64,000 bases of DNA from Nannocystis pusilla (GCF_020073745.1 NZ_JAIRAU010000047.1:29990-93989); one strand, 5' to 3'; positions 1 to 59,002 are shown, counted from the stretch's first letter. Program-made: numbers and translations. The notes: generated by a model not told the origin, from the sequence alone.

Positions 1-90
1 CGCGCCCGGGGGCATGTCCTCATCCCGCGTTGCGAGCCCGCGGAGAGGCCCGTACGCGGCCTGGCACAGGGGTTGCTAATAAGCACGGGC

Positions 91-1071
91 ATGTCCCGCC
101 TGCTCGCCCTATCCACGCTATCCCTCGCCCTCTCCGCCTGCGACCCCCAGATCCTCCCCGGCGACCACGGATCGCAGAGGGATGACTTCGGCCGCGAGGG
201 CGAAGCGTGCGCCGCGGACCGGCCGTCGGCGGCCTGTCAGGTCGAGAGCGTCGCGGGCGTCGAATACTGCGTGTATTCGCCCGTGCAGGTCACCTACGTC
301 TGGTCCGCCTGCCTCACCGAGACCTGCGAGGAGGAGGGCGAGACGCGCCCGTGCGAGGAGGGCCTCCAGCACTGCGTGGGCTACGAGGCCGAGCGCAACC
401 GCGTCGAGCTGCGCTGGGGCGCCTGCGTCGAGGAGGACGAGTGCACGCCGGGCGAGTCCAGGTCGTGCGGCCTCGACGAGGGCATCGACATGGGCTGCGT
501 CGCCGACGAGAACGGCCGCGGCGTGTGGGACATCGAGGACTGCAACACCCCGCTGGTCCTCAGCTTCGGCGAGCCGATCGAGTTCGCGCCGGCCTCCGTG
601 GCCGCGGCCGACTTCGACATCCGCGGCGGCGCCGGCAGCTGCGCCCGCGCCGACTGGCCGAGCGCCGCCACGCCGTGGCTCGCCCTCGACCGCGACGGCA
701 ACGGCAGCATCGACGGCGGGCGGGAGCTGTTCGGCAGCGCCACCCGCATGTCCTCGGGGACAGGTCCTCACAACGGCTTCGACGCCCTCGCCGAGCTCGA
801 CAGCGACCGCGACGGCAAGCTCACCGCCGCCGACGCGCGCTGGGGCGAGCTCGTGCTGTGGGCCGACCACGACGGCGACCGGCGCTCGACCGGCTGGGAG
901 ACGCTGCCGCTGGCCAGCTTCGAGATCGTCGAGATCGACCTCGGCTACACCACCCGCCGCGAGTGCGACGCCCGCGGCAACTGCGGCCTCGAGCGCGCCC
1001 GCTTCGTCTACCGCAGCATGGGCCAGGAGCGCTCCGGCGAGGTCGTCGACGTCCGCGTCCAGTGCGAGTGA
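91..1071 (+). CDS. secreted Cys-rich lipoprotein with EF-hand-like calcium-binding loops
   Basis: N-terminus MSRLLALSTLSLALSAC gives a signal peptide plus lipobox. Many Cys. Two DxDxDG-type loops (DRDGNGSIDGG, DSDRDGKLTAAD). The ATG lies inside a GGCATGTCC unit. GC3 is high. Confidence 0.55.
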   Translation: MSRLLALSTLSLALSACDPQILPGDHGSQRDDFGREGEACAADRPSAACQVESVAGVEYCVYSPVQVTYVWSACLTETCEEEGETRPCEEGLQHCVGYEAERNRVELRWGACVEEDECTPGESRSCGLDEGIDMGCVADENGRGVWDIEDCNTPLVLSFGEPIEFAPASVAAADFDIRGGAGSCARADWPSAATPWLALDRDGNGSIDGGRELFGSATRMSSGTGPHNGFDALAELDSDRDGKLTAADARWGELVLWADHDGDRRSTGWETLPLASFEIVEIDLGYTTRRECDARGNCGLERARFVYRSMGQERSGEVVDVRVQCE

Positions 1072-1120
1072 GCCGGCCCGCTGCCCCCGACCCAGGCATC
1101 CGCGCAGGTCGCCCTGCCCG

Positions 1121-1165
1121 GATGCTTGTCCTTTCGGGCGTGCAACATGCCTCTTCGGACATATC
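1121..1165. repeat. array of degenerate RCATGYCC palindromic units (3 units) downstream of the 91..1071 gene
   Basis: Read directly: gcttgtcc-tttcggg-cgtgcaacatgcc-tcttc-ggacatatc. Confidence 0.5.
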
Positions 1166-1358
1166 ATCGTCTTCGCCGGGAGCGCCCGACCGCCGCTCGC
1201 AGACGAGCCCCGTGCGCCTCGCCTCACGCCAACGAACTCCCCCTGGTCGCCCGCCGAGAAAAATTCGCGGTCGCGCAATTTTCCCGGGCACCGCGGCGAC
1301 TTCACGCTCGAACGGCCCACGGCGACCCACCGGCCGCGCCGTTCGAGAGAGATCCGCC

Positions 1359-1923: not shown

Positions 1924-1947
1924 GGACATGTCCATTAAAACATGCCC
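1924..1947. repeat. GGACATGTCC palindromic unit plus AACATGCCC unit between convergent genes
   Basis: Exact GGACATGTCC at 1924-1933 and aacatgccc at 1939-1947, separated by the AT-rich spacer attaaa. Confidence 0.65.
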
Positions 1948-3710: not shown

Positions 3711-4184
3711 CTACGCGGTGGCCCTGTCCCAGTTGCCGAACGGCAGCGGCTTGCCGAGCTCGAGGAAGCTCTTGAGGTTGGACAGGATGCCGGGCCACCC
3801 GCGCGACACGCCCTGCAGCACCTTGCTGCCCGCCGGGAACTGGTCGTGCGTCAGCGTCAGACGGACCATCGCCCCGAGCGGCTTGAGCTCGAACGTCACC
3901 CGCGAGGCCGGCTCGGTCGCCTCGCCGTGGTCGACGCCGAAGGTGTACGAGAGCAGCGTCGGCGCCTCGCAGCGCAGCACCTCGCCGGTGATGTCGGTCT
4001 TGCGGCCCTCGTCGTAGCGGTACACGATCGGCGCGCCCGGCTGCCACGTCGATTCGACCCGGCGCCCGCCCCAGTACTTCTCGGTGAAATCGCCCTGCGT
4101 CAGCGCCTCCCACAGCTTCTCCGCCGTGGTGGCGATGTAGAGCACATACACAAAGCTCGGCTTATCCGTCGTCGTCGTCGTCAT
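3711..4184 (-). CDS. SRPBCC superfamily protein (Activator of Hsp90 ATPase homolog 1-like, AHSA1 domain)
   Basis: 157 aa with the conserved architecture of AHSA1/START-like proteins. Overlaps the 3' end of an ArsR-family gene by 23 nt, the usual arsR-ahsa1 pairing. Confidence 0.75.
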   Translation of the reverse strand: MTTTTTDKPSFVYVLYIATTAEKLWEALTQGDFTEKYWGGRRVESTWQPGAPIVYRYDEGRKTDITGEVLRCEAPTLLSYTFGVDHGEATEPASRVTFELKPLGAMVRLTLTHDQFPAGSKVLQGVSRGWPGILSNLKSFLELGKPLPFGNWDRATA

Positions 4185-4518
4185 GATCGTGGTTCTCCTC
4201 GAGGCTCGTCTTGAGGGCGTGCAGGGCCGCCAGGTGGTGGTGCTGGTACTTGCCGATCCAGCGGGCGTAGATGTCGTGGATCGGCACCGGGTTGAGGTAA
4301 TGCAGCTTCTCCCGCCCGCTGCGGACCACGACCACCAGGCCGGCCGCCTCGAGCACCGCGAGGTGCTTGGCGACCGCCTGGCGCGTCATGTCGAGGTGCT
4401 CGCACAGCGCGTGCAACGTCTGGCCGTTGTCGCAGAACAGCCGGTCGAGCAATTGCCGGCGCGTCGCGTCGGCCAGCGCCTTGAACACCTCGTCCATGCG
4501 GGTGGTCCTATCATGCAA
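4162..4518 (-). CDS. ArsR/SmtB family transcriptional regulator
   Basis: Winged-HTH ArsR signature (ALADATRRQLLDRLFCDNGQTLHALCEHLDMTRQAVAKHLAVLEAAGLV). His/Asp-rich C-terminal tail. Confidence 0.85.
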   Translation of the reverse strand: MHDRTTRMDEVFKALADATRRQLLDRLFCDNGQTLHALCEHLDMTRQAVAKHLAVLEAAGLVVVVRSGREKLHYLNPVPIHDIYARWIGKYQHHHLAALHALKTSLEENHDHDDDDDG

Positions 4519-4530
4519 CCTTTTGGTTGC
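4515..4530. promoter_or_regulatory. candidate ArsR operator: perfect inverted repeat GCAACC-TTTT-GGTTGC just upstream of the arsR start
   Basis: Read directly at 4515-4530. Sits in a locally AT-richer stretch (atcatgcaaccttttggttgcttgtcaagtg) consistent with promoter/operator overlap. Confidence 0.45.
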
Positions 4531-4625
4531 TTGTCAAGTGTCGATCGTTGCGGCACACGGCGCAAGACACGCAACGACCCGGGGCTGCTCCGAGCGCACC
4601 TCCTTCGGATTCGCAGCCGCCCTGT

Positions 4626-4997
4626 TCACTCGCAAGGGGCACAAAGACAACGCGCGCCGTCCTCCGCGATCAAGCAGCCCAGCGAGCACCCGCGCGGGTC
4701 GATCGCCTTGCAGTCCGAGTCACAGGTCCGGCGAGCCCACTGCGCCGATTCGCACACGAGCAACGCCTCACCGTCGAGTTCGCAGCGCCGTTCTCCCTGC
4801 GGCTCGCACGGATCTCCGACCCCCGGCTCGTCGCGCATGGGCGGCTCTCCCGAGGTTTCGGTCGCCTCGTCGGAGGTTCCCGCGGTGCATGCCGCGCAGA
4901 GCGCGAGCACGAGACCGCGGACGCTAGGGGTCGTCACAAACACAGGCCGCTCCGCCCGCAAGAAGGGGATCGCACGTGCCCCCGGCACAGGAGTCAT
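4626..4997 (-). CDS. small Cys-rich secreted lipoprotein (start uncertain)
   Basis: Frame of ORF 4626..5303. Hydrophobic segment RGLVLALCAAC (lipobox) followed by a Cys-rich module (CEPQGERRCELDGEALLVCESAQWARRTCDSDCKAIDPRGCSLGCLIAEDGARCLCAPCE). Start could be ATG 4997 or a GTG near 4922. Confidence 0.4.
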   Translation of the reverse strand: MTPVPGARAIPFLRAERPVFVTTPSVRGLVLALCAACTAGTSDEATETSGEPPMRDEPGVGDPCEPQGERRCELDGEALLVCESAQWARRTCDSDCKAIDPRGCSLGCLIAEDGARCLCAPCE

Positions 4998-5616
4998 CGC
5001 AGGGCTCGAGCACCCACGCACCATCCACGCAGGACACAAGTTCGTCGCCCTCGCAGTGCGCTCGCGTGTCCAATGCACAGGGCGTGCCTTCGAGCGTGCA
5101 ACGGCAGCCGCCACCGTGCAGGAACTCATCGCATCCGAGCGATCGCCGGGCCGGTTCGAGCGCGGCGCATACGTCGTCGCAGCCCAGTACAGCGTACTGG
5201 AGGGTGTCTTGCTGGCAAACGCGGACCTCCTGCTCTGACGCGCATGCCAGCGCGCCCGGCGAACATTCGGGGGCGAACGACTCACACCAGCAGAGCGCTC
5301 CATCGCTCGCTACCTCGCCTGCGAGACACCCCACAGCTCCTCCGCGGTCAGCGCACACCTCGTCGCAGTCGACCAGCGCCCAGACGCGCTCGCTACACTC
5401 CCACAGCGAATGTGCGTCCGCGCACTCCGACACGGCGTATCCACACCCGTCACCCTCGTGTCGCCCGTAATCACCGAGGGGAGCCGGCCCAGGATCTCGG
5501 CACGCGACGAAGGCGAGCCCGAACGCGATGGCCTGCCGACACGCCGCCAGCGCCGAACTCCCCCCGCCACGGTCGAACAGCGGCGTCGGGTCGAACCATT
5601 TCACAGCGGCTCGCAC
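4924..5616 (-). CDS. Cys-rich secreted lipoprotein
   Basis: LAFGLAFVAC lipobox followed by about 30 Cys in repeated CxxC/CD contexts. Confidence 0.5.
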   Translation of the reverse strand: MRAAVKWFDPTPLFDRGGGSSALAACRQAIAFGLAFVACRDPGPAPLGDYGRHEGDGCGYAVSECADAHSLWECSERVWALVDCDEVCADRGGAVGCLAGEVASDGALCWCESFAPECSPGALACASEQEVRVCQQDTLQYAVLGCDDVCAALEPARRSLGCDEFLHGGGCRCTLEGTPCALDTRAHCEGDELVSCVDGAWVLEPCDDSCAGGTCDPLLAGGAACVCDDP

Positions 5617-6839
5617 TCCGACTCTGCGACGGAAGCCGTGAAGACGTAGGTGTCCGTCTCGAATACAACGTCGTCAACCACGATCAGGTCGGGATCTCGC
5701 CTTCCGAAGGCCGTGATGGAGTTACCCGCCGTCACTTCGAAGGGAACCGAGCCGGTGACGTCGACCATGTTCCCGGTGACACGCACCCAGATCGAGCCGG
5801 GAGGGAACTCGACACTGGAGCCGTCGGACATACCTGCCGCCGGGGTGATGAGGTTGATCTCGATGTCCTCGAGGTCCGAGCTTCCGTACACCACGTCCTC
5901 GACCTGGAGGCTCAACGTGTCGATCATGAATACGCAGAGCGGATCGAAGCAGGCGTAGTCGGTTGTTGTGATCGTACCCGAAGCCTGCGGCGCCACGAAC
6001 GCGGCTCCGTCGGTGATCTCGATCTCGCTGTCCTCGACAACGCAAGATTGACGCTCCTTCGTCGGAGGCTGGTTCTTCGCCTCCGTGCAGTTGTCCGTGT
6101 TCGTCTCGAAGTCGATCTCGGCGGACGTACACTTGAGATCGAGGACTGCGTCGGCGAAGCACCCCCCTTTCAACACGCCGAGATCCTGTACACAACCCGC
6201 GCTGCCGAGGTTGAGAGTCACCCCCGAACCGGAATCCGCGACGATTTGCACACACAAGTCGAAGTTCTCCAGCAACTTATCCCGCCAGTACTTTACAGAC
6301 TGGGCGATGTTATCTTCACAAACATTAATTTCGATCTGCGAGGGAGGCGGGGTTCCTTCCGAACACTTGTCGTCGGGAGGATCCAGGATCAATGCCTCAA
6401 ATCGCGCCAGTGCATCGCTACAAGCGGCATGTGCACAGTCGACGAGACAGGCTGCATCGCCTTTCTCTTCTCCTTCCGGATCCGCCTCGATCCCCACCTC
6501 GCAGCACGTTTCGACCCGAGGGCCCTCAGTCGGGTCGTCGGAGTTGAAAGGAATGATGCCATCCGCCCCTTCGGTTTCTTCACTGTCAATCAAGATCACT
6601 TGATTTGACTCGACACTGGGCTCGCAGTCGATCTCGTCTTCGTCGTTGAAGTCACAGACAACGAAGCGCAATTCGCCCTGCACCGCCCCTGCGCAGCCGT
6701 ATCGCTGGCCTGGACCGTCCGTCCCTTCGAACACTTGCTGGGCACAGAGCCCACCGGGAGGGGGCAAATCGGCGATTATCGTCGTCTCACCGACCGTCGC
6801 CCCCGTGGCGACCTCGTCGTCTCCACATCCCCCCAACAT
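5601..6839 (-). CDS. acidic Cys-rich hypothetical protein (no signal peptide found)
   Basis: 412-aa ORF with clearly lower GC than the flanks and an in-frame TGA immediately upstream of the ATG. Asp/Glu- and Cys-rich. Composition suggests a foreign origin. Confidence 0.45.
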   Translation of the reverse strand: MLGGCGDDEVATGATVGETTIIADLPPPGGLCAQQVFEGTDGPGQRYGCAGAVQGELRFVVCDFNDEDEIDCEPSVESNQVILIDSEETEGADGIIPFNSDDPTEGPRVETCCEVGIEADPEGEEKGDAACLVDCAHAACSDALARFEALILDPPDDKCSEGTPPPSQIEINVCEDNIAQSVKYWRDKLLENFDLCVQIVADSGSGVTLNLGSAGCVQDLGVLKGGCFADAVLDLKCTSAEIDFETNTDNCTEAKNQPPTKERQSCVVEDSEIEITDGAAFVAPQASGTITTTDYACFDPLCVFMIDTLSLQVEDVVYGSSDLEDIEINLITPAAGMSDGSSVEFPPGSIWVRVTGNMVDVTGSVPFEVTAGNSITAFGRRDPDLIVVDDVVFETDTYVFTASVAESECEPL

Positions 6840-7114
6840 CGTTCAAGTAAAAAACACGCCGGCACACATCATTGCTCTTACAACATTCCAACGCCCAGTC
6901 GCCATGCTGACCTCCAACAGGAAGATATTCGCAGAGGAGGCTTCGCCCTGCAAGCCCTTTCAGAGAACTCCCGTGTGAGCTTACAGCAGACAGCATAAAC
7001 GACGTTATCCCGCCGGGGAAAATCTGTCACAGCGAGTCGAAGCGCAACTTTGTTGCCCACACCTCGCAGAACCCTCTGGCCAATTACCGCCAGCGAATGC
7101 AAAATCCCGCCGAC

Positions 7115-8233
7115 ATGTCATTCCCCGCGTCGAAAGAATCGGTCCGCACGCCGAAGTGGCCGCGAGTGTGCGGTGGCATCGTCGCACTCGGCTTCGCCTG
7201 CGAGAACGACACACCCGTGCCCGAGAGTGAGCCCGTCGACTCCCCGGACGCCGAGATCGTCTACAGCAGCGAACACATCGACATTGCTCCGCTCGGCTCG
7301 GAAGCGCTGTGCGCCGGCACTCTCGCCATGCTCGACGATCACGTGGAGTACGTCCTCGACATGCTCGAGTTGGGGCTGGAAGAACGCATCACCATCTATC
7401 TCTTCCTGAAGGGGGCCGATGTCCCCATTCGCAAGTGGTGCCGGCAGGATGTCTCGGGATGCGCGCGGGGGACCACGATCTATTCGGTCCTGTCTCTGCT
7501 TCCCCACGAAATCGTGCACGCGATCACCTCAAGCGAGGGGCGCTCCTGGTGGGAGGAAGGTGCAGCCCGCGGGCTCGGCGACCCCTCGACCTTCCCCGAT
7601 CTCCTCACCGGCTGGCAGGCGAACCTGGGCGGCGCCGGGCACCTCTCGCGCTGGCTCATCGAGCGCTTCGGCGGCCGGACCTACATGAATCTCTACGCGC
7701 GCACACCGTACGGGGCCTCGCAGGCGAAGGTCGAAGCGGTCGCCCGGACCGTCCTGGGCCGCGAGTTCGACGACGTGCTCGATGAGTATGCGGCCACCGC
7801 TCCCTTCGTCTACCCCCATCACTGGGAGTGCTACGTGTCGTCCGAGGCGGTCGCCGTGCCGTGGGAGGACGAGTACTGGGAGGTTGAGGTCGACCTCGAC
7901 TGCGATCGGACCGACACGTTCAGCAGCCATGTGGCCATTTACGGCATGCAGATGACCGCTCGCGTGCCCGTGACGCTCCCCGCGAACGGGTCTTATTTTT
8001 TCGTCGCCGATCACCCCGACGCCAACCTTGCCATCCAGCCGTGCGCGAGCGAGCCGCGGACGAAGGTGACCCCGGGCGCCTATTCGTGGCCTCTCGAATT
8101 GCTCGGCGCGGCCGGGGCATCACAGCTCGAGGCCGGGCCTCATGTGCTGCTCGTGCATCTCCCGCCCGGGCCGCCGGCTCACGTCCGTATCATCGCCTAC
8201 CCCGAGATCGGCGAGCAGGGCGCACCGCACTGA
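7115..8233 (+). CDS. putative zinc-metalloprotease lipoprotein (HExxH)
   Basis: MSFPASKESVRTPKWPRVCGGIVALGFAC signal plus lipobox. HEIVH (HExxH) motif at LLPHEIVHAITS. The ATG sits in GACATGTCA, a motif-like context. Confidence 0.5.
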   Translation: MSFPASKESVRTPKWPRVCGGIVALGFACENDTPVPESEPVDSPDAEIVYSSEHIDIAPLGSEALCAGTLAMLDDHVEYVLDMLELGLEERITIYLFLKGADVPIRKWCRQDVSGCARGTTIYSVLSLLPHEIVHAITSSEGRSWWEEGAARGLGDPSTFPDLLTGWQANLGGAGHLSRWLIERFGGRTYMNLYARTPYGASQAKVEAVARTVLGREFDDVLDEYAATAPFVYPHHWECYVSSEAVAVPWEDEYWEVEVDLDCDRTDTFSSHVAIYGMQMTARVPVTLPANGSYFFVADHPDANLAIQPCASEPRTKVTPGAYSWPLELLGAAGASQLEAGPHVLLVHLPPGPPAHVRIIAYPEIGEQGAPH

Positions 8234-8266: not shown

Positions 8267-8304
8267 GAACATGCCGGATCGGACATGTCCTCTTCAACAT
8301 GGCC
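8267..8304. repeat. RCATGYCC unit array (gaacatgcc / GGACATGTCC / aacatggcc) between convergent genes
   Basis: Exact GGACATGTCC at 8281-8290, flanked by degenerate units with 5-nt spacers. Confidence 0.65.
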
Positions 8305-10702: not shown

Positions 10703-10749
10703 GCGCCCGCCGCCGCCCGCGTGCACCTGACCGATCGGGCCTGCTCCAA

Positions 10750-10790
10750 GAACCCTGTCCGCAAGTACCTGTCCGCCAGGACCTGTCCCC
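10750..10790. repeat. three CCTGTCC half-motif units with 13-nt period upstream of gcvH
   Basis: aaccctgtccgc / aagtacctgtccgc / caggacctgtcccc read directly. The gcvH start (ATGTCCGACATC) is also motif-like. Confidence 0.5.
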
Positions 10791-14790: not shown

Positions 14791-14864
14791 GCGCATGTCC
14801 CTGACGGCATGTCCTCACCGACATGTCCTCGTCGACATGTCCTCGATCGCATGCCCCCATGACC
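14791..14864. repeat. array of 5-6 RCATGYCC units with 13-bp period directly after the Atl stop
   Basis: cgcatgtccc-tgac-ggcatgtcc-tcac-cgacatgtcc-tcgt-cgacatgtcc-tcga-tcgcatgcccc-catgacc read directly. Confidence 0.7.
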
Positions 14865-18024: not shown

Positions 18025-18090
18025 GGACATGTCCCTTACGACATGTCCTCCAAAACACTCCCCATCAGACATGCCCCTCAGGACATGTCC
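18025..18090. repeat. array of four GGACATGTCC-type units between pmbA and the 17402..17806 gene
   Basis: ggacatgtccc / cgacatgtcc / agacatgcccc / ggacatgtcc, with two exact GGACATGTCC copies. Confidence 0.7.
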
Positions 18091-23045: not shown

Positions 23046-23128
23046 GAGACATGACCTTCGGGGCATGTCCTGAAGGTCATATCTCGGCAACCATGTCTTC
23101 ACGGACATGTCGTCCATGACATGTCCCC
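23046..23128. repeat. array of 5-6 RCATGYCC-type units in the gap before the histidine kinase gene
   Basis: gagacatgacc / ggcatgtcc / ggtcatatc / ccatgtcttc / ggacatgtcg / gacatgtcccc. Confidence 0.65.
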
Positions 23129-27694: not shown

Positions 27695-27732
27695 GGTCAT
27701 GTCCCCCAGGGCATGTCCTTTCGAGCATGCCC
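27695..27732. repeat. three RCATGYCC units right after the OmpA-family gene stop
   Basis: ggtcatgtccc-ccagg-gcatgtcc-tttcg-agcatgccc. Confidence 0.65.
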
Positions 27733-28710: not shown

Positions 28711-28793
28711 CGCACCTGTCGCCAGGGCCATGTCCCTAGCGACATTTTTTAAAAGACATGCCCCGGGCGACATGCCCGAGCAGACATGCGCCC
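28711..28793. repeat. array of 6-7 RCATGYCC units with 14-bp period containing an AT-rich anomaly (gacattttttaaaagacatg) between convergent genes
   Basis: cgcacctgtcg / gccatgtccc / gacatttttt / gacatgcccc / gacatgcccg / gacatgcgccc. Confidence 0.7.
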
Positions 28794-32021: not shown

Positions 32022-32023
32022 AG

Positions 32024-32049
32024 GCCCTGTCCTTCGGGACATGTCCCCA
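32024..32049. repeat. two RCATGYCC units (ggccctgtcc / GGACATGTCCCC) between rplC and rlmE
   Basis: Read directly, immediately after the rplC stop. Confidence 0.6.
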
Positions 32050-38787: not shown

Positions 38788-38826
38788 GGGACGTGTCCTT
38801 TTCGACATGCCCCGAAGCACATGACC
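38788..38826. repeat. three RCATGYCC units between convergent genes (gggacgtgtcc / gacatgcccc / cacatgacc)
   Basis: Read directly after the LDLa-lipoprotein stop. Confidence 0.6.
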
Positions 38827-40090: not shown

Positions 40091-40142
40091 GACACGCCCC
40101 TTTCAACATGTCCCATCACACATGCTCCTGACGACATGCCCG
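40090..40142. repeat. four RCATGYCC units between trpF and the Mur ligase gene
   Basis: cgacacgcccc / aacatgtccc / cacatgctcc / gacatgcccg, with 4-nt spacers. Confidence 0.6.
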
Positions 40143-40147: not shown

Positions 40148-40774
40148 TCAGTCGCCGCGGCAGGCCGCCAGCAGCCGCTCGATCGCCGCCCGGTCCTTCT
40201 CGCCGCGGCGGGCGCCGGGCAGCTCGGTGCCGCTGGCGACGTCGAGCCCGGCCGGCCGCACCTGCTGGATCGCCAGGGCCGCGTTGGCCGGCGTGATCCC
40301 GCCGGCCAGCCACACCTCGAGCGGCGCGAGGCGCTGCACCGCCGCGGCGGCCCAGCCCCAGTCGGTCGTCTGGCCGGCGCCGCCGTAGCCGGGCACCGCG
40401 GCGTCGAGCAGCGCGCGGGCCGGGCGGGGCGTCGGCGCCCGCAGCTCGGCCAGCGCCGGTGTGCCGCGGACCACCCACAGGTACGGCAGCCCGAAGCCCG
40501 TCACCTCCTGCGCGCCGACGATCTGCACGAGGTCGAGCTGCAGCACCTCCGCCGCGCGTCGCACCTCTTCGGCCGTCGGCTCGACGAACACCCCGACGAG
40601 CTCGAGCCCCGGCGGCGGCCGCACCTCGGCCAGCAGCGCCTCGGCCGCGGCCAGCGTCAGCCCGCGGCGCGAGCCGCTCCACAGGTTGATCCCGACGGCG
40701 TCGACGCCCAGCTCGGCGCAGGCCGCCAGGTCCTGCGGCCGCGTCACCCCGCACACCTTGAGCTTCACGGACAT
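40148..40774 (-). CDS. trpF: phosphoribosylanthranilate isomerase
   Basis: MSVKLKVCGVTRPQDL ... typical PRAI TIM-barrel sequence. The ATG lies inside an exact GGACATGTCC palindrome. Confidence 0.85.
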   Translation of the reverse strand: MSVKLKVCGVTRPQDLAACAELGVDAVGINLWSGSRRGLTLAAAEALLAEVRPPPGLELVGVFVEPTAEEVRRAAEVLQLDLVQIVGAQEVTGFGLPYLWVVRGTPALAELRAPTPRPARALLDAAVPGYGGAGQTTDWGWAAAAVQRLAPLEVWLAGGITPANAALAIQQVRPAGLDVASGTELPGARRGEKDRAAIERLLAACRGD

Positions 40775-40820
40775 GTCCGAACCTTCCTGTCCCGATCACC
40801 CTGTCCCGGCGAACATGCCC
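40769..40820. repeat. motif array spanning the trpF start and the trpC-trpF gap
   Basis: GGACATGTCCG / ttcctgtcccg / ccctgtcccg / aacatgcccg. Confidence 0.6.
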
Positions 40821-40836: not shown

Positions 40837-41643
40837 TCACAGCGCCATCACCAGCTCGCGCAGCGTCTCGCCGGGCTGCTCGGCGGTCATGAAGTAGCTG
40901 CCGATCAGGAGCGCGTCGGCGCCCGAGTCGCGCAGGCGGAGCGCGTCGTCGATCGTGCGGACCCCGCTCTCGGCGACGTACGTGAAGCTCTTGGGCACGT
41001 ACTTGCGCAGCTTGGCGGCGCGGTCGGGGTCGAGCTCGAAGGTCTGGAGGTCGCGCGAGTTGACGCCGATGAGCTTGGCCCCGGCCGCCATCGCCCGATC
41101 GATCTCCGCCTCGTCGCGGGTCTCGCACAGCACCTGCATCTCGAGCGAGTGGGAGAACTCGATCAGGTTGCGCAGCTGCGGCGCCGGCAGGGCGGCGACG
41201 ATCAGCAGCACGCAGTCGGCCCCGACCCGCTTGGCCTCGACGATCTGCGTCTTCTCGAGGATGAAGTCCTTGCACAGCAGCGGCAGTGCCACGCTCTGGC
41301 GGACCGAGCGGAGGTCGTCGAGCGAGCCCTGGAAGTGCTTGTCGCACAGCACGCTCATGCAGGCCGCGCCGTTGGCCGCGTAGAGCATGGCGATCTGGCG
41401 CGCGTCGGCGTCCTCGCGGAGCACGCCGGCGCTCGGCGAGGCGCGCTTGAACTCGGCGATGATCCCCGGCCGCGGCCCCTCGCGCAGGGCGGCGATGAAG
41501 TCGCGCGGCCGTGGCAGTCGGGCCCCGAGCTCGAGCAGCTCGCGGTCGGTCAGCGCCCCCGAGCGCATCGCCCTCGGGGCGGCGAGCTCGGCCCGCTTGG
41601 CGGCCAGGATCTTGTCGAGGTACGTGCTGCCTTTGTCGCTCAT
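40837..41643 (-). CDS. trpC: indole-3-glycerol phosphate synthase
   Basis: IIAEFKRASPS, MSVLCDKHFQGS, LLCKDFI, LIGVNSRDL motifs. ATG in a gggacATG context. Confidence 0.9.
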   Translation of the reverse strand: MSDKGSTYLDKILAAKRAELAAPRAMRSGALTDRELLELGARLPRPRDFIAALREGPRPGIIAEFKRASPSAGVLREDADARQIAMLYAANGAACMSVLCDKHFQGSLDDLRSVRQSVALPLLCKDFILEKTQIVEAKRVGADCVLLIVAALPAPQLRNLIEFSHSLEMQVLCETRDEAEIDRAMAAGAKLIGVNSRDLQTFELDPDRAAKLRKYVPKSFTYVAESGVRTIDDALRLRDSGADALLIGSYFMTAEQPGETLRELVMAL

Positions 41644-41651
41644 GTCCCGCC

Positions 41652-42719
41652 TCAGGGTAGCGCAGCGCGGCTGGCGGCGACGAGCCGGTCGAGCACCGCC
41701 GCGGCGCGGCCGTCGTCGAGCGCCGCGCCGATCGCCCGCGCCTTGGCCGGCAGCGCCTCCAGGCCGTCGTCGCCCGCGGCCAGCAGGGCCAGCGCCCCGC
41801 TGTACTGCACACTTGTCCGGTACGCCCCCGGCTCGCCGGCCAGCAAGCCCCGCAGCGCGTTCGCGTTGCCGGCCGCGTCGTCGCCGGCGATCGCCGCGAT
41901 CGGCACCTCCGGCAGCCCGGCGTCGCCCGGGCGCAGCGTGTACGTGCGCAGCGCGCCCCGGTGCCACTCCGCGATCGTGCTCGCGCCCTCCGGGCTGAGA
42001 TCGTCGATCCCCGGCCGCTCCGCGCCGGCGAAGAACCCGTGGACCACGAACACGCGCTCGCTGCCGAGGGCCCCGAGCGCCGCCGCCATCGCCTCGACCT
42101 TGCCCGGGTCGAACACCCCGATCACCTGGCGCCGCACCCCCGCGGGGTTGCACATCGGCCCCACCAGGTTGAACAGCGTGCGCAGCCCCAGCGCCTTGCG
42201 CGGGCCGGCCGCGTGGCGCATCGCCGGGTGCAGGTTGGGCGCGAACATGAAGCCGACGCCGACCTCGTCGACGCACTTGCCGACCCGCTCGGGCGGCGCC
42301 GTGATGTCGACGCCGAGCGCGGCCAGCACGTCGGCCGAGCCGCACGGGCTCGAGATCCCGCGGTTGCCGTGCTTGGCCACCCGCGCCCCGCAGGCCGCCG
42401 CCGCGATCGCCACCGCCGTCGACACGTTGCGCCGGGCCACCCCGCTGCCGCCGGTCCCACAGGTGTCGATCGCCCCGGCCTCGCGCAGCGGCACCGCGAC
42501 CACCGCCTCCCGCATCGCCCGCACCGCGCCGGCGATCACCGCCGCCGTCTCCCCGCGGATCGAGAGCCCGACCAAGAGCCCGCCGATCTGCGCCGGGTCG
42601 GCCGCGCCGGCCACGATCTCGCGGAAGATCGCCAGCGCCTCGTCCTCGCCGACCGCCTCGCCGCGGACCAGCCGCGCCAGCCCGCGCCGCAGCGCCCCGT
42701 CAGCTGCTCCTTCGGTCAT
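41652..42719 (-). CDS. trpD: anthranilate phosphoribosyltransferase
   Basis: DTCGTGGSG, KHGNRGISS, and C-terminal family match. ATGA overlap with the trpG stop. Confidence 0.9.
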   Translation of the reverse strand: MTEGAADGALRRGLARLVRGEAVGEDEALAIFREIVAGAADPAQIGGLLVGLSIRGETAAVIAGAVRAMREAVVAVPLREAGAIDTCGTGGSGVARRNVSTAVAIAAAACGARVAKHGNRGISSPCGSADVLAALGVDITAPPERVGKCVDEVGVGFMFAPNLHPAMRHAAGPRKALGLRTLFNLVGPMCNPAGVRRQVIGVFDPGKVEAMAAALGALGSERVFVVHGFFAGAERPGIDDLSPEGASTIAEWHRGALRTYTLRPGDAGLPEVPIAAIAGDDAAGNANALRGLLAGEPGAYRTSVQYSGALALLAAGDDGLEALPAKARAIGAALDDGRAAAVLDRLVAASRAALP

Positions 42720-43405
42720 GTCGCTCCCGCCATGTTCGAAGGGACATGCATCTCGAGGAAGGTGCGGAGCATCGCGTGGCCGTGCTCGCTGAGCACCGAC
42801 TCCGGGTGGAACTGGACCCCGTGGAGCGGCCGCGTGGCGTGCCGCACCCCCATCAGCTCGCCGACGTCGGTGCGCGCGTTGGGCACCAGCGCGGCCGGCA
42901 GCGTGCTCTCGACCGCGGCCAGGCTGTGGTAGCGGGTGGCCATGAACGGCGACGGCAGGCCGGCGAACACCCCGGTGTTGTCGTGCACCATCGGCGACAG
43001 CTTGCCGTGCATGATCCGCCCGGCCCGCTCGACCCGCGCGCCCAGCACCTCGCACAGCGTCTGGTGACCGAGGCAGACCCCGAGCAGCGGGATCGCCGGC
43101 GCGTCGGCCTCGGCCAGCCGCCGGCACAGGTCCTGGCACACCCCGCTGTCGCTCGGCGTACCTGGCCCCGGGGACAGCATGATGTGGCTCGGCGCGTCGG
43201 CCAGCACCTGCTCCAGCGTGACCGCGTCGTTGCGGTGGACGTCGACCACCACGCCGAGCTGCAGCAGGTACTGCACCAGGTTGAAGGTGAACGAGTCGTA
43301 GTTGTCGATCATCAGCACGCGGCAGCCCGCGCGGGCCGGGCCGCTCGGTCGCAGGCGCTGGCCGCCCGGCAACGGCGGCGCCGCGGATTGGACGGTCTCG
43401 GTCAC
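42716..43405 (-). CDS. trpG: anthranilate synthase component II (glutamine amidotransferase)
   Basis: VLMIDNYDSFTFNLVQYL, GVCLGHQ catalytic Cys, HGV.FHPE. GTG start overlaps the trpE stop (GTGA) behind an aaggagg RBS. Last 11 codons are built from motif units. Confidence 0.85.
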   Translation of the reverse strand: MTETVQSAAPPLPGGQRLRPSGPARAGCRVLMIDNYDSFTFNLVQYLLQLGVVVDVHRNDAVTLEQVLADAPSHIMLSPGPGTPSDSGVCQDLCRRLAEADAPAIPLLGVCLGHQTLCEVLGARVERAGRIMHGKLSPMVHDNTGVFAGLPSPFMATRYHSLAAVESTLPAALVPNARTDVGELMGVRHATRPLHGVQFHPESVLSEHGHAMLRTFLEMHVPSNMAGAT

Positions 43406-45970: not shown

Positions 45971-46025
45971 GCAAATGCCCCGCCTCCATGCTAGCACTTC
46001 GAGACATGTCCGTTTCGACATGGTC
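45971..46025. repeat. motif array downstream of the Ser/Thr kinase gene
   Basis: gcaaatgcccc / tccatgctagc / gagacatgtccg / gacatggtc. Confidence 0.55.
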
Positions 46026-52468: not shown

Positions 52469-52917
52469 CCGCCGCGTTCGCGCCGGTGGCCGAGTTGGTC
52501 CCGCAGCGCCCGCCGATGCTGCTCGTCGACGAGGTCCTCGCCGCCGGCGACGACGCGATCACCTGCGCCGCCGTCGTCCGCCCCGACAACCTGTTCGCCG
52601 TCGCCGGCCGCGTCCACGCCTCCGTCGCGCTCGAGTACATGGCCCAGGCGATCGCCGCGTTCGCCGGCCTGCGCGCGCGCGCCGAGGGTCAGCCGCCCGC
52701 GCTCGGCATGATCGCCGCCTGCCGCGGCCTCGAGCTGCACGCCGAGCACCTCGCCGTCGGCGACGCGCTGCAGATCGTCGCCACCCGCGTGTTCGCCGGC
52801 GCCATGGCCGAGTACCGGGCCGCCGTCACCCGCCGCGGCGAGCCGCTCGCCGAGGCCGTCCTCCACGTCGTCACCGCCGCCCCTGCCACCACCACCGCCC
52901 CCGGGAGCCCCGCATGA
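52465..52917 (+). CDS. FabA/FabZ-like hot-dog 3-hydroxyacyl-ACP dehydratase
   Basis: PMLLVDEV motif and hot-dog length (150 aa). Confidence 0.6.
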   Translation: MTAAFAPVAELVPQRPPMLLVDEVLAAGDDAITCAAVVRPDNLFAVAGRVHASVALEYMAQAIAAFAGLRARAEGQPPALGMIAACRGLELHAEHLAVGDALQIVATRVFAGAMAEYRAAVTRRGEPLAEAVLHVVTAAPATTTAPGSPA

Positions 52918-53636
52918 AGCCGCGCGCGCTCGTCACCGGCGCCAGTCGAGGGATCGGCGCCGCGATCGCCGAGGCCCTCGCGGCCGCCGGCCACCCGATC
53001 GTCCTCAACTACCGCAGCGACGACGCCGCCGCCGAGGCCGTCGCCGCCCGGATCCGCCAGGCCGGCGGCGAGGTCGTCCTCAGCCGCTTCGACGTCGGCG
53101 ACGACGCGGCCGCCGACGCCGCCATGGCCGCGATCCTGGCCGACCCGCGGCCGCTCGGCGTCGTCGTCAACAACGCCGGCATCGCCCGCGACGCCCCGTT
53201 CCCGGCGCTCGAGCGGGCCGACTGGGAAGCTGTCCTTCGGACCAGCCTCGGCGGCTTCTACAACGTCACCCGGCCCGTGATCATGCCGATGGTGCGGCGC
53301 AAGTGGGGCCGGATCATCACCATGAGCTCGGTCTCGGCGCAGATCGGCAACCGGGGTCAGGTCGCCTACGCCGCGGCCAAGGCCGGCGTCATCGGCGCGA
53401 CGAAGTCGCTCGCGCTCGAGCTCGCCCGCAAGGGCGTCACCGTCAACGCCGTCGCCCCCGGCCTCGTCGACACCGACATGATCAAGGACGTCCCGCTCGA
53501 GCACGTCATGCCGCGGATCCCCGCCCAGCGGCTCGGCACTGCCCGCGAGGTCGCCGCGCTGGTCGCCTTCCTCGCCACCGACGAAGCCGCCTACATCACC
53601 GGTCAGGTGATCGGTGTCAACGGCGGCATGGTATGA
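52914..53636 (+). CDS. 3-oxoacyl-ACP reductase (SDR family, FabG-like)
   Basis: TGASRGIGAAIA cofactor motif, NNAG, catalytic S...YAAAK. Confidence 0.85.
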   Translation: MKPRALVTGASRGIGAAIAEALAAAGHPIVLNYRSDDAAAEAVAARIRQAGGEVVLSRFDVGDDAAADAAMAAILADPRPLGVVVNNAGIARDAPFPALERADWEAVLRTSLGGFYNVTRPVIMPMVRRKWGRIITMSSVSAQIGNRGQVAYAAAKAGVIGATKSLALELARKGVTVNAVAPGLVDTDMIKDVPLEHVMPRIPAQRLGTAREVAALVAFLATDEAAYITGQVIGVNGGMV

Positions 53637-53643
53637 CGCGGCC

Positions 53644-54843
53644 ATGCATGACGTCGTGATCGTCGGCGCCGGCCCTGCCGGTTCGACCGCCGCCAACTTG
53701 CTCGCCCAGGCCGGCGTCCGCGCGCTCGCGCTCGACATGGACGTGTTCCCGCGGTTTCACATCGGCGAGTCGCTGCTGCCGATCGACCTGCCGATCTTCG
53801 CCCGCCTCGGCGTCGTCATGGAGCGCACGCGCTGGCAGTACAAGCAGGGCGCCGAGTTCATCGACGAGCGCACCGGCGAGTTCGCCTTCTTCAGCTTCGC
53901 CGACGGCCTCGAGGGCACGCCCCCCCACGCCTGGCAGGTCGACCGCGCCGAATTCGACACCATGCTCGCCGAGCTCGCGGTCTCCCGCGGCGCCGACATC
54001 CGCTTCGGCGAGCGCGTCGGCGACATCGAGTTCGCCGGCGATCACGTCCGCGTCGTCACCGACCGCGGCGAGCACCGGGCCCGCTTCCTCCTCGATTGCA
54101 CCGGTCAGGACGCCATGCTCGGCCGCGGCGCCCGCACGATCGCCCCGCTGCACGAGCTCGGACGCGCCGCCGTCTTCTGTCACTTCGACGACCTCGCGCC
54201 CGACGTGCAGGCCGAGCTCGGCGAGCAGGGCAACATCAAGGTCCTGATCGTCGAGGACGGCTGGCAATGGGTGATCCCGATGCACGGCGGTCGGCTCAGC
54301 GTCGGCCTCGTCAAGTGGCGCGGCAAGCTCGACGACGACGCCTTCGAGGCCGCCCTCGCCGCCTCGCCGCTGTGTCGCCGGCTCACCGCCGGGGCCACGC
54401 GCAGCGCCTCGCGGACGATCCGCAACTGGAGCTACAAGAACACCCGCCCCTCCGGTCCGCGCTGGGCCTGCGTCGGCGACGCCCGCGCCTTCCTCGACCC
54501 GGTGTTCTCGTCGGGCGTCTCGCTGGCGATGCTGGGCGCCGAGCGGACCGTCGACCTCCTCGTCCCTGCCCTCGCCGCCGGACGCGAGGCCGACCCCGAT
54601 CTCATGGGCCCCGTCCACGCCACCATGCAGATCGCCTACGACAGCTTCGAACAGCTGATCCGCCGCTTTTACCACACGCGCCTCGTCTCCCACCTGTTCT
54701 TCGCCCGCACGCCCGACCCGCAGCTGCGTCGTGGCCTCATCAGCATGCTCGCCGGCGACGTCTGGCGCGACGACAACCCGTTCCAGGACATGCTCCGCGG
54801 GTCACGCGTCCAGCCGCAGCGGGTCACGACGCCGGGCGAGTGA
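53644..54843 (+). CDS. flavin-dependent halogenase-like FAD-binding enzyme
   Basis: VVIVGAGPAGS Rossmann motif. GWQWVIP (WxWxIP) and FLDPVFSSG (FxxPxxSxG) motifs characteristic of tryptophan-halogenase-family enzymes. Confidence 0.7.
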   Translation: MHDVVIVGAGPAGSTAANLLAQAGVRALALDMDVFPRFHIGESLLPIDLPIFARLGVVMERTRWQYKQGAEFIDERTGEFAFFSFADGLEGTPPHAWQVDRAEFDTMLAELAVSRGADIRFGERVGDIEFAGDHVRVVTDRGEHRARFLLDCTGQDAMLGRGARTIAPLHELGRAAVFCHFDDLAPDVQAELGEQGNIKVLIVEDGWQWVIPMHGGRLSVGLVKWRGKLDDDAFEAALAASPLCRRLTAGATRSASRTIRNWSYKNTRPSGPRWACVGDARAFLDPVFSSGVSLAMLGAERTVDLLVPALAAGREADPDLMGPVHATMQIAYDSFEQLIRRFYHTRLVSHLFFARTPDPQLRRGLISMLAGDVWRDDNPFQDMLRGSRVQPQRVTTPGE

Positions 54844-56336: not shown

Positions 56337-56933
56337 TCAGCCGAGCTCGAGCGTCGCCAGCAGCTCCACCACCTCCGCGAGCGGCAGCCCGACCACGTTG
56401 GTGTAGCTGCCCTCGATCCGGCGCACCAGGCCGGCCGCCGCGCCCTGGATCCCGTAGGCGCCGGCCTTGTCGCGCCACTCTTCCGTGTCGAGGTAGCGGT
56501 CGATCTGCGCCGGCGTCAGCGGCCGGAACCACACCGTCGTCGTCACCGCGAACGGGTGCCAGCGGACCTCGGGCCCGCGGGCGTCGGCGACCGCCACCGC
56601 CGTCGTCGTGAAGTGCGAGCGCCCGGCCAGGCGCGTCAGCATCGCAGCCGCCTCCGCGCGGTCGGCCGCCTTGGCCAGCGGCTCGATCTGTCCTTCGAGC
56701 CAGACCGTCGTGTCGGCCGCCAGCACCACCACACCTGGCCGCAAGGCCAGCTCTGCCTTGGCCCGCGCGACCCGCTCGACGTACCGCGGCGGCGGCTCGT
56801 CGGCGAACCACGTCTCGTCGCAATCGACCGGCGCGCGCGCGAACGCGATCCCGGCCGAGCGGAGCAGCTCGGCGCGACGCGGCGACGCCGACGCGAGGAC
56901 GAGGGTCGAAGAGGGCTGCGGCTGTCCGGACAT
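56337..56933 (-). CDS. maf: Maf-like nucleoside triphosphate pyrophosphatase
   Basis: LVLASASPRRAELL, AYGIQG, and family length. Confidence 0.85.
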   Translation of the reverse strand: MSGQPQPSSTLVLASASPRRAELLRSAGIAFARAPVDCDETWFADEPPPRYVERVARAKAELALRPGVVVLAADTTVWLEGQIEPLAKAADRAEAAAMLTRLAGRSHFTTTAVAVADARGPEVRWHPFAVTTTVWFRPLTPAQIDRYLDTEEWRDKAGAYGIQGAAAGLVRRIEGSYTNVVGLPLAEVVELLATLELG

Positions 56934-57332
56934 CGCCCGCGGATCTGCCGGATCGGCGGCCCGCGTGCAACCGCCGCGGCAGCCGCACACGTCGACGCGG
57001 GGCGGCCACACAGGCGCGAGCGTCCCGGCACGCCCCGCGAGCGGCTCCCGCCCTCTGCGCTCCTGTTCGCGTCACCCGTGAACCTCGTCGCCGCCCGAGC
57101 ACGCGGCCGCTCGCCTCGGCGACGCCCGACCTCGCCGCCCCCCTCGCCTCGCGCCGCCCGGCCGATGTTCCGCGCAGCCTTCGCGGCCGCTCGCCTCGGC
57201 GCCGCACTCCCTCGCCTCGCGCCGCCCGGCCAAACCTTCGCGCAAGCGGCCGCGACCGCCACGGGCGGCCCTTCACGCCGGCAGGCGTCCGCGCCTCCGG
57301 GCCGTGCGGCCGCGCGTGCTACCATCCCGGCC

Positions 57333-58214
57333 ATGCGGCGCCCCTTCTGTCTCTCGAGCGTCTACCTCCTCGCGGTCCTCGCGCTGTCGGCCCCGTTCAT
57401 CACCGCCTCGCCGCTCGCGCCCGCCGAGCCTGTCCCCGAGGACAGCTGTGCGATCGAGGCCGTCGACCCCGCGCTGCTCGGCGTGTGGCACCGCTTCGAC
57501 GCCCTCGCCGAGGGCGACCGCATGCGCTTCTGGTTCTTCCACGAGGGCGGCTTCGGCCTCTACCGCTACGGCAAGGTCGGCCTGACCAACACCCACAGCT
57601 TCGACTACAGCGCCGAGGGCGGCGTCCTCGAGCTGACCTTCCGCAAGACCGGCGAGCGCCGGCGCGTCCCCTACCGCCTCGAAGACGACGGCGGCCGCAC
57701 CTGGCTGGTCCTCGACGACGACCCGCGCGAGGCCGGCGGCGCCCGCTACTTCAAGGCCCCGGCGGCGGCCACCGGCGCCCCCTGCTTCGACGCCTCCGAG
57801 GACATGTCCCGGGCGACAGGCTCCGAAGGACATGTTCCTGCGGCCAGCGACCGGATCGGCGGGCGGCTGTGGGGCGAGGAGGTCCGCTACGCCACCGGCG
57901 GCATGGGCTTCTCGATCTACCAGCTGCAGCCGCAGGCGATCGACGGCCGCGGCGTCGGCTGGCACCACCGCGGCGACTACGACGAGTGGACCACCGAGAC
58001 CCTCACCTACCGCCAGCGCGGCGACCGGCTGGCGCTGTCGTTCCCGCTGCGCCACGACGGCCTCGAGACCGCGATCACCGTCAGCGGCAGCGGCGACGAC
58101 CGCACGCTCCACCTCGCCGAGGACCCGCGCGACTTCTGGCGCGCCCACACCTACCGCGACATGGGCCCGACCTTCGCCGGCGCCGCCGCCCCGGCCGCCT
58201 GCCTGCCGCAGTAG
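57333..58214 (+). CDS. hypothetical secreted protein
   Basis: Signal peptide MRRPFCLSSVYLLAVLALSAPFITA. Contains an in-frame motif insertion at 57801-57838. Confidence 0.5.
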   Translation: MRRPFCLSSVYLLAVLALSAPFITASPLAPAEPVPEDSCAIEAVDPALLGVWHRFDALAEGDRMRFWFFHEGGFGLYRYGKVGLTNTHSFDYSAEGGVLELTFRKTGERRRVPYRLEDDGGRTWLVLDDDPREAGGARYFKAPAAATGAPCFDASEDMSRATGSEGHVPAASDRIGGRLWGEEVRYATGGMGFSIYQLQPQAIDGRGVGWHHRGDYDEWTTETLTYRQRGDRLALSFPLRHDGLETAITVSGSGDDRTLHLAEDPRDFWRAHTYRDMGPTFAGAAAPAACLPQ

Positions 58215-58270
58215 CCGCCGCCGCTCCGGCCCGCCGACCAACCTGCTCTTTCGCACCTATCCCGAGTCAC

Positions 58271-59002
58271 ATGTCCTTGGAGCCAGACGACATCGCCGCC
58301 AACCTCGCCGCAGTGCGCGCGCGGATCGCCGCCGCCGTGGTCCGCCGCGGCCCCGGCCGCGAGCCGATCCTGATCGGCGTCGGCAAGAAGCAGCCCGCCG
58401 AGGCCGTGATCGCGGCCCGCCGCGCCGGCCTCGGCGACTTCGGCGAGAACTACGCCCAGGAGCTGGTCGCCAAGGCCGAGGCCGTCGCCGCCGCCGTCGT
58501 CCCCCCGCGCTGGCACTTCATCGGCCCGCTGCAGACCAACAAGGTCCGCAAGGTCGTCGGCGTCGGGGCGCTGGTCCACACCGTCGACCGGCCCGCCCTC
58601 GTCGACGAGCTCGCCCGCGAGGTCGCCCGTCTGCGGGCCGGTCGCGGCGCCACCGCCCCGCTCGAGCTCCTCGTCGAGGTCAACGTCGGCGACGAGGCGC
58701 AGAAGGCCGGCGTCGCCGCGGCCGAGCTGCCCGCGCTGCTCGACCTCGTCGCCGCCCGCCCCGAGCTGCGCTGCGTCGGCCTCATGGCGATCCCGCCCGA
58801 GGGCGAGCCGGAGCAGACCCGGCCGTACTTCGCCCGCCTGCGCGAGCTGGCGCGCCGCGAAGCCGCCGTCGCCCGCCCCGGCGTCGAGCTGGTCCACCTG
58901 TCGATGGGCATGAGCTCCGACTTCGAGGTCGCTATCGAGGAAGGCGCGACGATGGTCCGCGTCGGCACCGCGATCTTCGGCCCCCGCCCGCCGCGCGCCT
59001 GA
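58271..59002 (+). CDS. yggS: YggS family pyridoxal phosphate homeostasis protein
   Basis: ILIGVGKKQP (PLP-Lys), HFIGPLQTNK, and alanine-racemase-fold length. ATG inside a cacATGTCC unit. Confidence 0.85.
   Translation: MSLEPDDIAANLAAVRARIAAAVVRRGPGREPILIGVGKKQPAEAVIAARRAGLGDFGENYAQELVAKAEAVAAAVVPPRWHFIGPLQTNKVRKVVGVGALVHTVDRPALVDELAREVARLRAGRGATAPLELLVEVNVGDEAQKAGVAAAELPALLDLVAARPELRCVGLMAIPPEGEPEQTRPYFARLRELARREAAVARPGVELVHLSMGMSSDFEVAIEEGATMVRVGTAIFGPRPPRA

Follow-up and report, generated by a model that had tools for sequence, protein, structure and literature searches.

The 64,000-nucleotide stretch of Nannocystis pusilla DNA analysed here (NZ_JAIRAU010000047.1:29990-93989, hereafter "the window") carries a short palindromic unit, GGRCATGYCC, which is repeated at exact 14-bp intervals in small arrays, most of them lying just past the ends of genes. 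The gene map was derived from third-position GC (GC3) and annotated with NCBIfam and Pfam, and comprises among others gcvT-gcvH, rplC-rlmE, trpE-G-D-C-F, glyA, maf, yggS and an aryl-polyene-like cluster. The 326-residue product of the first gene (ATG 91, 91..1071) is 100% identical over its full length to an N. pusilla database entry, nine more products are exact N. pusilla GenBank/RefSeq entries, all of one 464-kb contig, and the TrpC of the window is 98% identical to that of N. radixulma. The G+C content is 73%, and the GC skew is negative throughout the 64 kb (−0.07 to −0.16).

A palindromic unit in a 14-bp register

The perfect unit GGACATGTCC is found 10 times in the window against 0.04 expected, and the form GACATGTC 18 times against 0.6; the palindromic motif reported in a preliminary description of this DNA is thus real and strongly over-represented. 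When every ACATGT of the window is listed in its context, the copies are seen to occur in runs. At the base of the repeat is a 7-nt half-site, GGRCAKG, which reads CMTGYCC on the opposite strand, and the 10-bp palindrome GGRCATGYCC consists of two such half-sites head to head, sharing the self-complementary CATG. Position frequency matrices give a consensus of this palindrome followed by four free nucleotides. In about one quarter of the units, CCTG or CAGG replaces CATG, leaving one half-site (CMTGYCC = GGRCAKG).

Arrays are made of two to six unit positions in a strict 14-bp register, with unconstrained spacers. On the + strand, pairs of C[AC]TG[TC]CC number 16, 11, 6 and 3 at distances of 14, 28, 42 and 56 bp, with practically none at any other half-site spacing between 5 and 60 bp, and unit spacings of 11–13 and 15–17 bp are represented by zero pairs. 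Because the spacers differ, Tandem Repeats Finder misses most arrays and picks up just three of those in the window. A looser definition of the unit, with CCGG-like cores, returned mainly GC-rich noise in coding DNA and was abandoned. The arrays of the window, together with the single units at or near start codons, are listed below in order of position; fractions are matches to GGRCATGYCC.

10..19: second perfect unit near the 91 gene, 77 bp upstream of the next one and out of 14-bp phase with it
87..96, + strand: perfect unit GGGCATGTCC, holding ATG 91 of the calcium-binding-protein gene
1924..1947: two-unit array (GGACATGTCC, AAACATGCCC) in the convergent region 1857–1970
7111..7120, + strand: isolated unit CGACATGTCA (8/10) at the annotated ATG 7115 of a lipoprotein gene; the sole motif copy in the divergent intergenic regions of the window
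8267..8304: three-unit array in the convergent region 8234–8361, with CATG at positions 8270, 8284 and 8298
10737..10788, + strand: array of four half-site units (CCTGTCC, with CCTG as core) in the gap from gcvT (stop 10702) to gcvH; the gcvH ATG 10816 lies in CATCATGTCC (7/10), its ATGTCC out of phase with the array
14791..14856, + strand: five-unit array, 6 bp past the ogt stop (14784)
18025..18090: array with five unit positions, set 14 bp past the stop codon (18105) of a minus-strand TldD/PmbA gene; its + strand orientation is the same as that of arrays beside + strand genes
23047..23126: array of six unit positions, filling the gap from a stop at 23039 to GTG 23129, the first in-frame start of a histidine-kinase ORF (open reading frame), 2 nt past the array; the motif ATGs are out of frame with this ORF
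27695..27732: three-unit array, 2 bp past a stop (27692); its ATG 27727 begins a spurious ORF of 341 aa, absent from the deposited proteins
28712..28791: array of six unit positions in the convergent region 28706–28825, an A/T-rich stretch replacing one unit
32023..32046: two units (CCTGTCC, then GGACATGTCC) directly past the rplC stop (32021); the rlmE ATG 32095 is 48 bp beyond the array, in CGTCATGCCC (8/10)
38789..38826: three-unit array in the convergent region 38779–38851
40104..40141: three-unit array filling the gap between the trpF stop and the start of a folC-like gene; shared with N. radixulma and N. exedens but not with N. punicea
40769..40820, − strand: array of four units separating trpC (stop 40837) from trpF, its last unit a perfect GGACATGTCC
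41638..41647, − strand: single unit GGACATGAGC (8/10) with the trpC ATG 41643, 8 nt past the trpD stop
42714..42751, − strand: three CATG units in phase, within the 12 terminal codons of trpG; the final one is CGACATGACC
46002..46025: two-unit array, 12–25 bp downstream of the stop (46037) of a minus-strand Ser/Thr kinase gene; kept, with changes, in four species
56928..56937, − strand: ATG 56933, where maf starts, in GGCGATGTCC; with its GATG core this is not a true unit
57800..57837: three-unit array (GGACATGTCC, CGACAGGCTC, GGACATGTTC) inside a hypothetical coding region
58239..58276, + strand: degenerate three-position array past a stop at 58214, its first two units read by eye; the last unit, TCACATGTCC (8/10), holds the yggS ATG 58271
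63541..63550: perfect GGACATGTCC in the convergent region 63522–63611

Gene ends and start codons

The core RCATGYC is present in 48 copies, 36 of which fall in the 15% of the window that is non-coding, mostly 9–90 bp past a stop codon. On the curated gene map of the window, an unbiased though small sample, it is found in six of the eight intergenic regions that are convergent (12.5 copies per kb), in 14 of the 25 that are co-directional (4.7 per kb) and in one of the seven that are divergent (0.45 per kb). Pooling the window with 38 further Nannocystis loci, in which genes were called from GC3 and which were chosen because they bear arrays, gives densities of 11.4 per kb in convergent, 2.8 in co-directional and 0.57 in divergent regions, and of 0.33 in coding DNA, where about 0.22 per kb is expected by chance. 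Arrays set in from a few to about 30 bp past the stop codon; where genes are co-directional, the median stop-to-array distance is 30 bp and the median distance from array to called downstream start 183 bp, and short intercistronic gaps are filled by arrays altogether. This placement is that of an element of gene ends and intercistronic gaps and not of a start signal. Many other arrays abut genes without providing their start, as at the histidine-kinase ORF, the folC-like gene and rlmE (48 nt downstream). Phased units are also present in apparently coding DNA at 744–767, 46922–46959, 52244–52309, 57800–57837 and 59532–59830, in genes for a Ca-binding protein, a Ser/Thr kinase, a KS-CLF-like (ketosynthase/chain-length-factor-like) protein, a hypothetical protein and a Fer2_4 protein, respectively. 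The array at 57800..57837 suggests that arrays are occasionally tolerated within ORFs, perhaps in linkers, unless such cases reflect faulty gene calls.

The preliminary description had placed the ATGs of at least eight genes inside motif copies. All eight are indeed publicly annotated starts: besides the 91 gene, exact deposited N. pusilla proteins begin at 7115, 10816 (gcvH), 40774 (trpF, minus strand), 41643 (trpC, minus strand), 42719 (trpD, minus strand), 56933 (maf, minus strand, the RefSeq 198-aa protein) and 58271 (yggS). The copies are, however, perfect only at the 91 gene and trpF (10/10), the others matching GGRCATGYCC at 8 of 10 positions (7115, trpC, trpD, maf and yggS) or 7 of 10 (gcvH). 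From base composition, 9.7% of ATGs are expected to reach at least 8/10; 13.1% of the 275 internal Met codons of the window do so, as do 5 of 29 annotated ATG starts (17%) in L123 and L124, two related Nannocystaceae loci without the repeat. About 8 of about 55 genes (15%) is therefore no excess, and at the match stringency of the preliminary description no enrichment at start codons remains beyond that due to Met-Ser N-termini and GC content. The sole excess lies in the two perfect start-codon units, for which about 0.1–0.2 would be expected. Between −200 and +30 nt of the onset of coding signal, a comparison independent of exact start calls, 24 of 70 motif ATGs are in frame (34%, the chance level), against 48% of all ATGs.

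A translation-initiation signal occupies a fixed position at many starts and is absent elsewhere, and the motif shows neither property. The proposal of a factor that recognises translation start regions is not supported: the motif is tied to gene ends (6/8 convergent, 1/7 divergent) and its ATGs are in frame at the chance level. The companion idea of a palindromic unit, perhaps mobile, that donated start codons holds weakly and for a few genes (trpF, trpD and yggS). We regard the overlap with starts as a by-product, since the core reads CATG on both strands and a gene abutting an array may use the ATG of the last unit. In this way the ATG of a unit serves as the start of trpF, trpD and yggS, and probably of the 91 gene as well; the remaining quoted starts are ordinary C-ATG-TCC (Met-Ser) contexts or half matches of the sort that chance would give in a 73% G+C genome. 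The spurious MS... ORFs that had been attributed to the motif are borne out by long ORFs opening at motif ATGs and absent from the deposited proteins, at 8285, 14823, 27727, 28730, 63545, 31086–32042 (minus strand) and others.

Two starts deserve further mention. In maf (56931–57011, minus strand) the older GenBank protein of 224 aa (from 57011) begins 78 nt upstream of the RefSeq protein of 198 aa (ATG 56933), and family-model alignment and orthologues favour the 198-aa start. The annotated ATG 29718 of a class I methyltransferase, in a divergent gap, lies in GGACATGGTT (29714–29723), of which the left half-site is perfect; read on the minus strand, the CATG of this site is in frame with the divergent gene at 28826, and the longer product is not a deposited protein.

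Conservation, pairing and strand polarity

When 185,579 species genomes were scanned for three units in phase, many matches came from N. pusilla, N. exedens, N. punicea, N. radixulma, N. bainbridge, Nannocystis sp. RBIL2 and one Nannocystis metagenome-assembled genome (MAG). Matches elsewhere (cyanobacteria, Gemmatimonadota, Sorangium and others) were unrelated tandem repeats of identical 7- or 14-mers, and a like scan of viral contigs found just plain 14-mer tandem duplications of about 50% G+C. The repeat is limited to one clade of Nannocystis (Myxococcota), and no arrays are seen around trpC in a Nannocystis sp. MAG (74% TrpC identity) or in a relative at 57% identity.

The trpC-trpF gap illustrates clearly how the arrays have been kept. 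Four to five units are present there in the window, in N. radixulma, N. exedens and N. punicea, and in L122, a metagenomic lineage at 83% TrpC identity. Across four lineages, positions 1–7 of the unit (GGRCAKG) are identical at 0.88–1.0 and positions 8–14 at 0.29–0.67, and in all five lineages the trpF ATG (in the window 40774–40772, minus strand) is the core of the terminal unit, in phase, as GGACATGTCC, GGACATGCCG or GGACATGGCC. In an array-free relative the N-terminus of TrpF is different and longer (MLRPSTPRLKICG, compared with MSVKLKVCG in the window). At the trpG/trpD junction, the last of the three phased units supplies the ATGA start/stop overlap; the TrpG C-terminus, ending in FLEMHVPSNMAGAT, is 8 residues longer than that of L122, ending in FLAMGT (L122 8900–8930), as two additional units, in phase, fall within the reading frame. 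The three units at the end of trpG are also found in N. radixulma, N. exedens and N. punicea. Overall, array cores are kept at orthologous sites in five Nannocystis lineages, and the spacers drift.

The arrays of L122 are mostly pure half-sites, so that the palindromic form is not obligatory; at 20330–20420 two copies of GGGGCGGGGCGAAA are followed by a run of at least five GGRCAGG units that recur every 14 bp on the G-rich strand. The convergent regions of the array-free relatives contain repeats of other kinds: an 11-mer, GCCGCTGTGACG, in 5 copies, an 8-mer, GGCGTCAT, in 7.8 copies, and a 15–16-mer containing GTCGGCC in 2.4 copies (L123 3572–3629 and 12874–12935; L124 8236–8273). Lineage-specific gene-end repeats may thus be a wider trait of the Nannocystaceae, judging from a very small sample.

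Pairing in RNA does not appear to be what is conserved. At the spacer positions 6–9 flanking the unit, complementarity is 0.23–0.38, equal to chance, so the symmetry stops at the 10-bp unit; covariation between adjacent units is found at none of the six testable pairs; and 90-nt 3' flanks that carry the motif fold neither better nor worse than those that lack it. Furthermore, the half-site arrays (trpC-trpF, gcvT-gcvH and most of those in L122) cannot self-pair, and the trpC-trpF array is conserved with a fold z-score of −1.4. Two candidates were dropped on these grounds, an extended hairpin (spacers non-complementary, units not covarying) and a better folding of motif flanks than of other 3' flanks (equal). 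Canonical hairpin-plus-T terminators are at the level of shuffled sequence (7 against 4.6, 8 against 4.4), no T-runs follow arrays in the window, so the GC hairpin with U-tract of an intrinsic terminator is lacking despite the post-stop position, and none of the Rfam 15 covariance models matches anywhere in the window at the gathering score.

The orientation of the arrays follows the GC-skew strand and not the gene. It is unrelated to the direction of the neighbouring gene (13 against 12), and a tie between the two was dropped as an idea; relative to the GC-skew strand, 65 arrays are concordant and 11 discordant. In intergenic DNA, CCTGTCC outnumbers GGACAGG on the C-rich strand by 43:4, and in coding DNA by 51:25, which is the compositional expectation (1.9). 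The preferred orientation flips with the replichore-scale skew in large assemblies of N. pusilla and N. punicea. Part of this polarity could come from a strand-biased decay of palindromes. Within the window the skew is less negative across minus-strand genes, showing that the sense strand is itself C-rich, and in loci of N. pusilla Na p29, N. punicea and N. exedens the C-rich strand carries about 59% of the coding length.

Other features of the window stand apart from the arrays. Between a class-V aminotransferase gene and ogt lies a non-coding repeat nest of about 1 kb (13400–14440), formed by a 273-nt inverted repeat (13550–13822/14168–14440, 90% complementary), each arm of which is a long palindrome centred on a perfect GGACATGTCC (13671 and 14310), and by tandem repeats of 39 nt (13457–13562) and 67 nt (13883–14026); a BLAST search with the 273-nt arm gave no further copy in the DNA examined. 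A low-GC island at 4000–8000 (64% against 72–75%), with ArsR-family and AHSA1-like genes and ORFs without family match, may be acquired DNA, and the isolated unit at the 7115 start is at its edge. Finally, an aryl-polyene-type cluster (50484–54843; ketosynthase, KS-CLF-like protein, ApeP dehydratase, ketoreductase and FAD halogenase-like protein) adjoins glyA, a position kept in other Nannocystis loci.

Relation to known repeats and possible function

Several known systems resemble the Nannocystis repeat in part. Like the repetitive extragenic palindromic (REP) sequences and bacterial interspersed mosaic elements (BIMEs) of Enterobacteria and Pseudomonas, it is a short GC-rich palindrome in many copies, located 3' of genes or between cistrons and rare in promoters, and its extragenic, mainly 3' placement in convergent and co-directional regions is theirs. 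REP sequences are bound by the host proteins IHF, gyrase and Pol I. They are, however, imperfect palindromes of 20–40 bp with a conserved stem-loop, alternating orientation and variable spacing, and are linked to REP-associated tyrosine transposases (RAYTs), whereas the Nannocystis unit measures 10 bp (half-site 7 bp) and is repeated head to tail in exact 14-bp register without covariation. A maintained stem-loop of 20–40 nt is not seen here, given the chance complementarity of the flanks, the lack of covariation and the half-site arrays that cannot pair. Mycobacterial interspersed repetitive units (MIRUs), tandem repeats in operon gaps whose ends overlap the flanking stop and start, are the closest precedent for the supply of start codons. 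Their units, 46–101 bp long, share the orientation of the operon and are translated as small ORFs; that of Nannocystis, with its 14 bp, is not a multiple of three, lies mostly between convergent genes and has no fixed orientation to transcription. The co-oriented units of 40–100 bp with a small ORF that characterise MIRUs are not found, and few arrays overlap a start or stop.

The likeness to the met-boxes of MetJ (AGACGTCT repeated 2–5 times) is of another kind: a short palindromic box in exact register, each position being independently near consensus, which is the pattern expected of one dimer per box with dimer-dimer contacts. Met-boxes adjoin each other as 8-bp units and are confined to a few promoters of a single regulon; the Nannocystis arrays have 10-bp units with 4-bp spacers, would amount to thousands of copies by extrapolation, and lie at gene ends and not at promoters. 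The DNA uptake sequences of Neisseria and uptake signal sequences of Pasteurellaceae are likewise genus-specific, over-represented 10–12-mers, with inverted intergenic pairs downstream of genes, but they are non-palindromic, unphased and abundant within genes too. With a coding density near chance and a strict 14-bp spacing, the Nannocystis repeat departs from this over-representation without register that extends to coding DNA, and the idea of an uptake sequence was dropped. Lastly, GGACATGTCC is letter for letter the optimal decamer of the p53 half-site RRRCWWGYYY, and both are tandem decameric palindromes; p53 is a eukaryotic transcription factor with no bacterial homologue implicated here, and the identity is, as far as can be told, a coincidence. 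Searches of the accessible literature for the decamer, the heptamer and Nannocystis repeats found nothing on the element, the top-listed papers with the string being mostly on p53, and the phased gene-end repeat of Nannocystis is apparently an undescribed variant of interspersed extragenic repeats.

The exact register, the independently kept cores, the free spacers, the indifference to transcription direction and the strand polarity together resemble phased protein-binding sites. We therefore think it probable, though well short of certain, that the repeat is a DNA-level element of gene ends and intercistronic gaps recognised by a putative protein, its presence at starts being a by-product. 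The array would serve as a platform on which a sequence-specific protein binds cooperatively in the 14-bp register, and the bound array might mark or insulate the ends of transcription units, either as a roadblock-type terminator or boundary or as a topological barrier.

Three of the alternatives account for some of the same features. A selfish REP- or MITE-like (miniature inverted-repeat transposable element) mobile palindrome, driven for example by an HUH/RAYT-type transposase and incidentally giving ATGs as it spread downstream of genes, is an explanation that we consider unlikely but worth keeping in mind: REP-type repeats under purifying selection end up in the order seen here (convergent > co-directional > divergent >> coding), the unit is a palindrome whose palindromic arrays fold strongly, the number and position of arrays differ between species within one intergenic region, and the replication-linked polarity recalls single-stranded DNA transposition into one template strand. 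Against it, spacers are never common to copies, so no copies are identical, the symmetry is confined to the 10-bp unit without covariation, orthologous cores are kept as spacers drift, and the register shows no indels; no transposase domain was found among about 40 window ORFs scanned, the whole genome not having been searched. It is distinctly unlikely that the element acts as RNA, with neighbouring units paired (8–10-bp stem, 4–6-nt loop) into bidirectional terminators without a U-tract or into hairpins stabilising 3' ends. The onset of arrays a few to about 30 bp past stops, the filling of convergent gaps, the absence of canonical terminators and the predicted folds of palindromic arrays would suit such a role; the conserved half-site arrays (GGACAGG-N7), however, cannot pair (z = −1.4 at trpC-trpF), compensatory changes between units are absent, 3' flanks fold alike with and without the motif, arrays lie between trp cistrons, and a pure structure would need neither a fixed sequence nor a fixed 14-nt register. 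The intergenic ratio of 43:4 with the GC-skew strand and its switch with replichore-scale skew in N. pusilla and N. punicea recall a KOPS- (FtsK orienting polar sequence) or Chi-type signal, an oriented G-rich heptamer GGACAGG read by a replichore-tracking translocase or nuclease. We find this very unlikely, since the coding bias of 51:25 does not exceed what composition predicts, palindromes, which have no polarity, make up most of the units here, and known signals of this type (KOPS, Chi, AIMS) are dispersed through genes, unphased at 14 bp and non-palindromic, and not confined to 3' intergenic DNA.

The motif as an initiation signal, read at start codons by the ribosome or by a factor that binds DNA or RNA, has been largely refuted by its distribution and is in our view highly improbable. 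Two perfect units hold annotated starts, more than the 0.1–0.2 expected, and the trpC-trpF array is in phase with the trpF ATG in five lineages, following the start and not the stop in N. exedens; yet the density peaks between convergent genes, where no gene starts, of the seven divergent regions just one holds the motif, motif ATGs are no more often in frame than chance predicts, loose matches are as common in array-free relatives, and orientation is independent of the gene strand.

Some observations weigh against a protein-bound boundary element, the reading that we prefer. We infer its boundary or terminator function from position alone, and the binding protein is putative; the purging of a neutral or selfish repeat from promoters and genes would also give a 3' enrichment. 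Strong termination is hard to reconcile with the arrays inside the apparent trpEGDCF operon. The array of the trpC-trpF gap in N. exedens has stayed beside the trpF ATG and not the trpC stop, so that a link with the downstream start is conceivable at that site. The fully palindromic arrays have strong predicted folds (z = −3 to −6), and this subset might have a role in RNA or as a cruciform. The statistics from outside the window, moreover, use GC3 gene calls and loci selected for their arrays.

These considerations bear first on annotation, for unit ATGs create many long false "MS..." ORFs in Nannocystis genomes, and start calling at trpF, trpD and yggS, which truly start in units, needs care. 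Extrapolated from the window, a 12-Mb genome of 73% G+C would carry thousands of phased units just past its genes. It is possible, if on present evidence doubtful, that a putative abundant DNA-binding protein polymerises in the 14-bp register on arrays at the ends of transcription units, with three units per four helical turns, and works as a factor-dependent terminator in both directions, an insulator or a barrier to supercoils, with replication direction dictating the polarity of the half-sites; such genome punctuation would be new to bacteria. A defined oligonucleotide of this kind offers a handle on how transcription units are bounded in very large myxobacterial genomes, and the element could reveal a new nucleoid-associated or termination factor.

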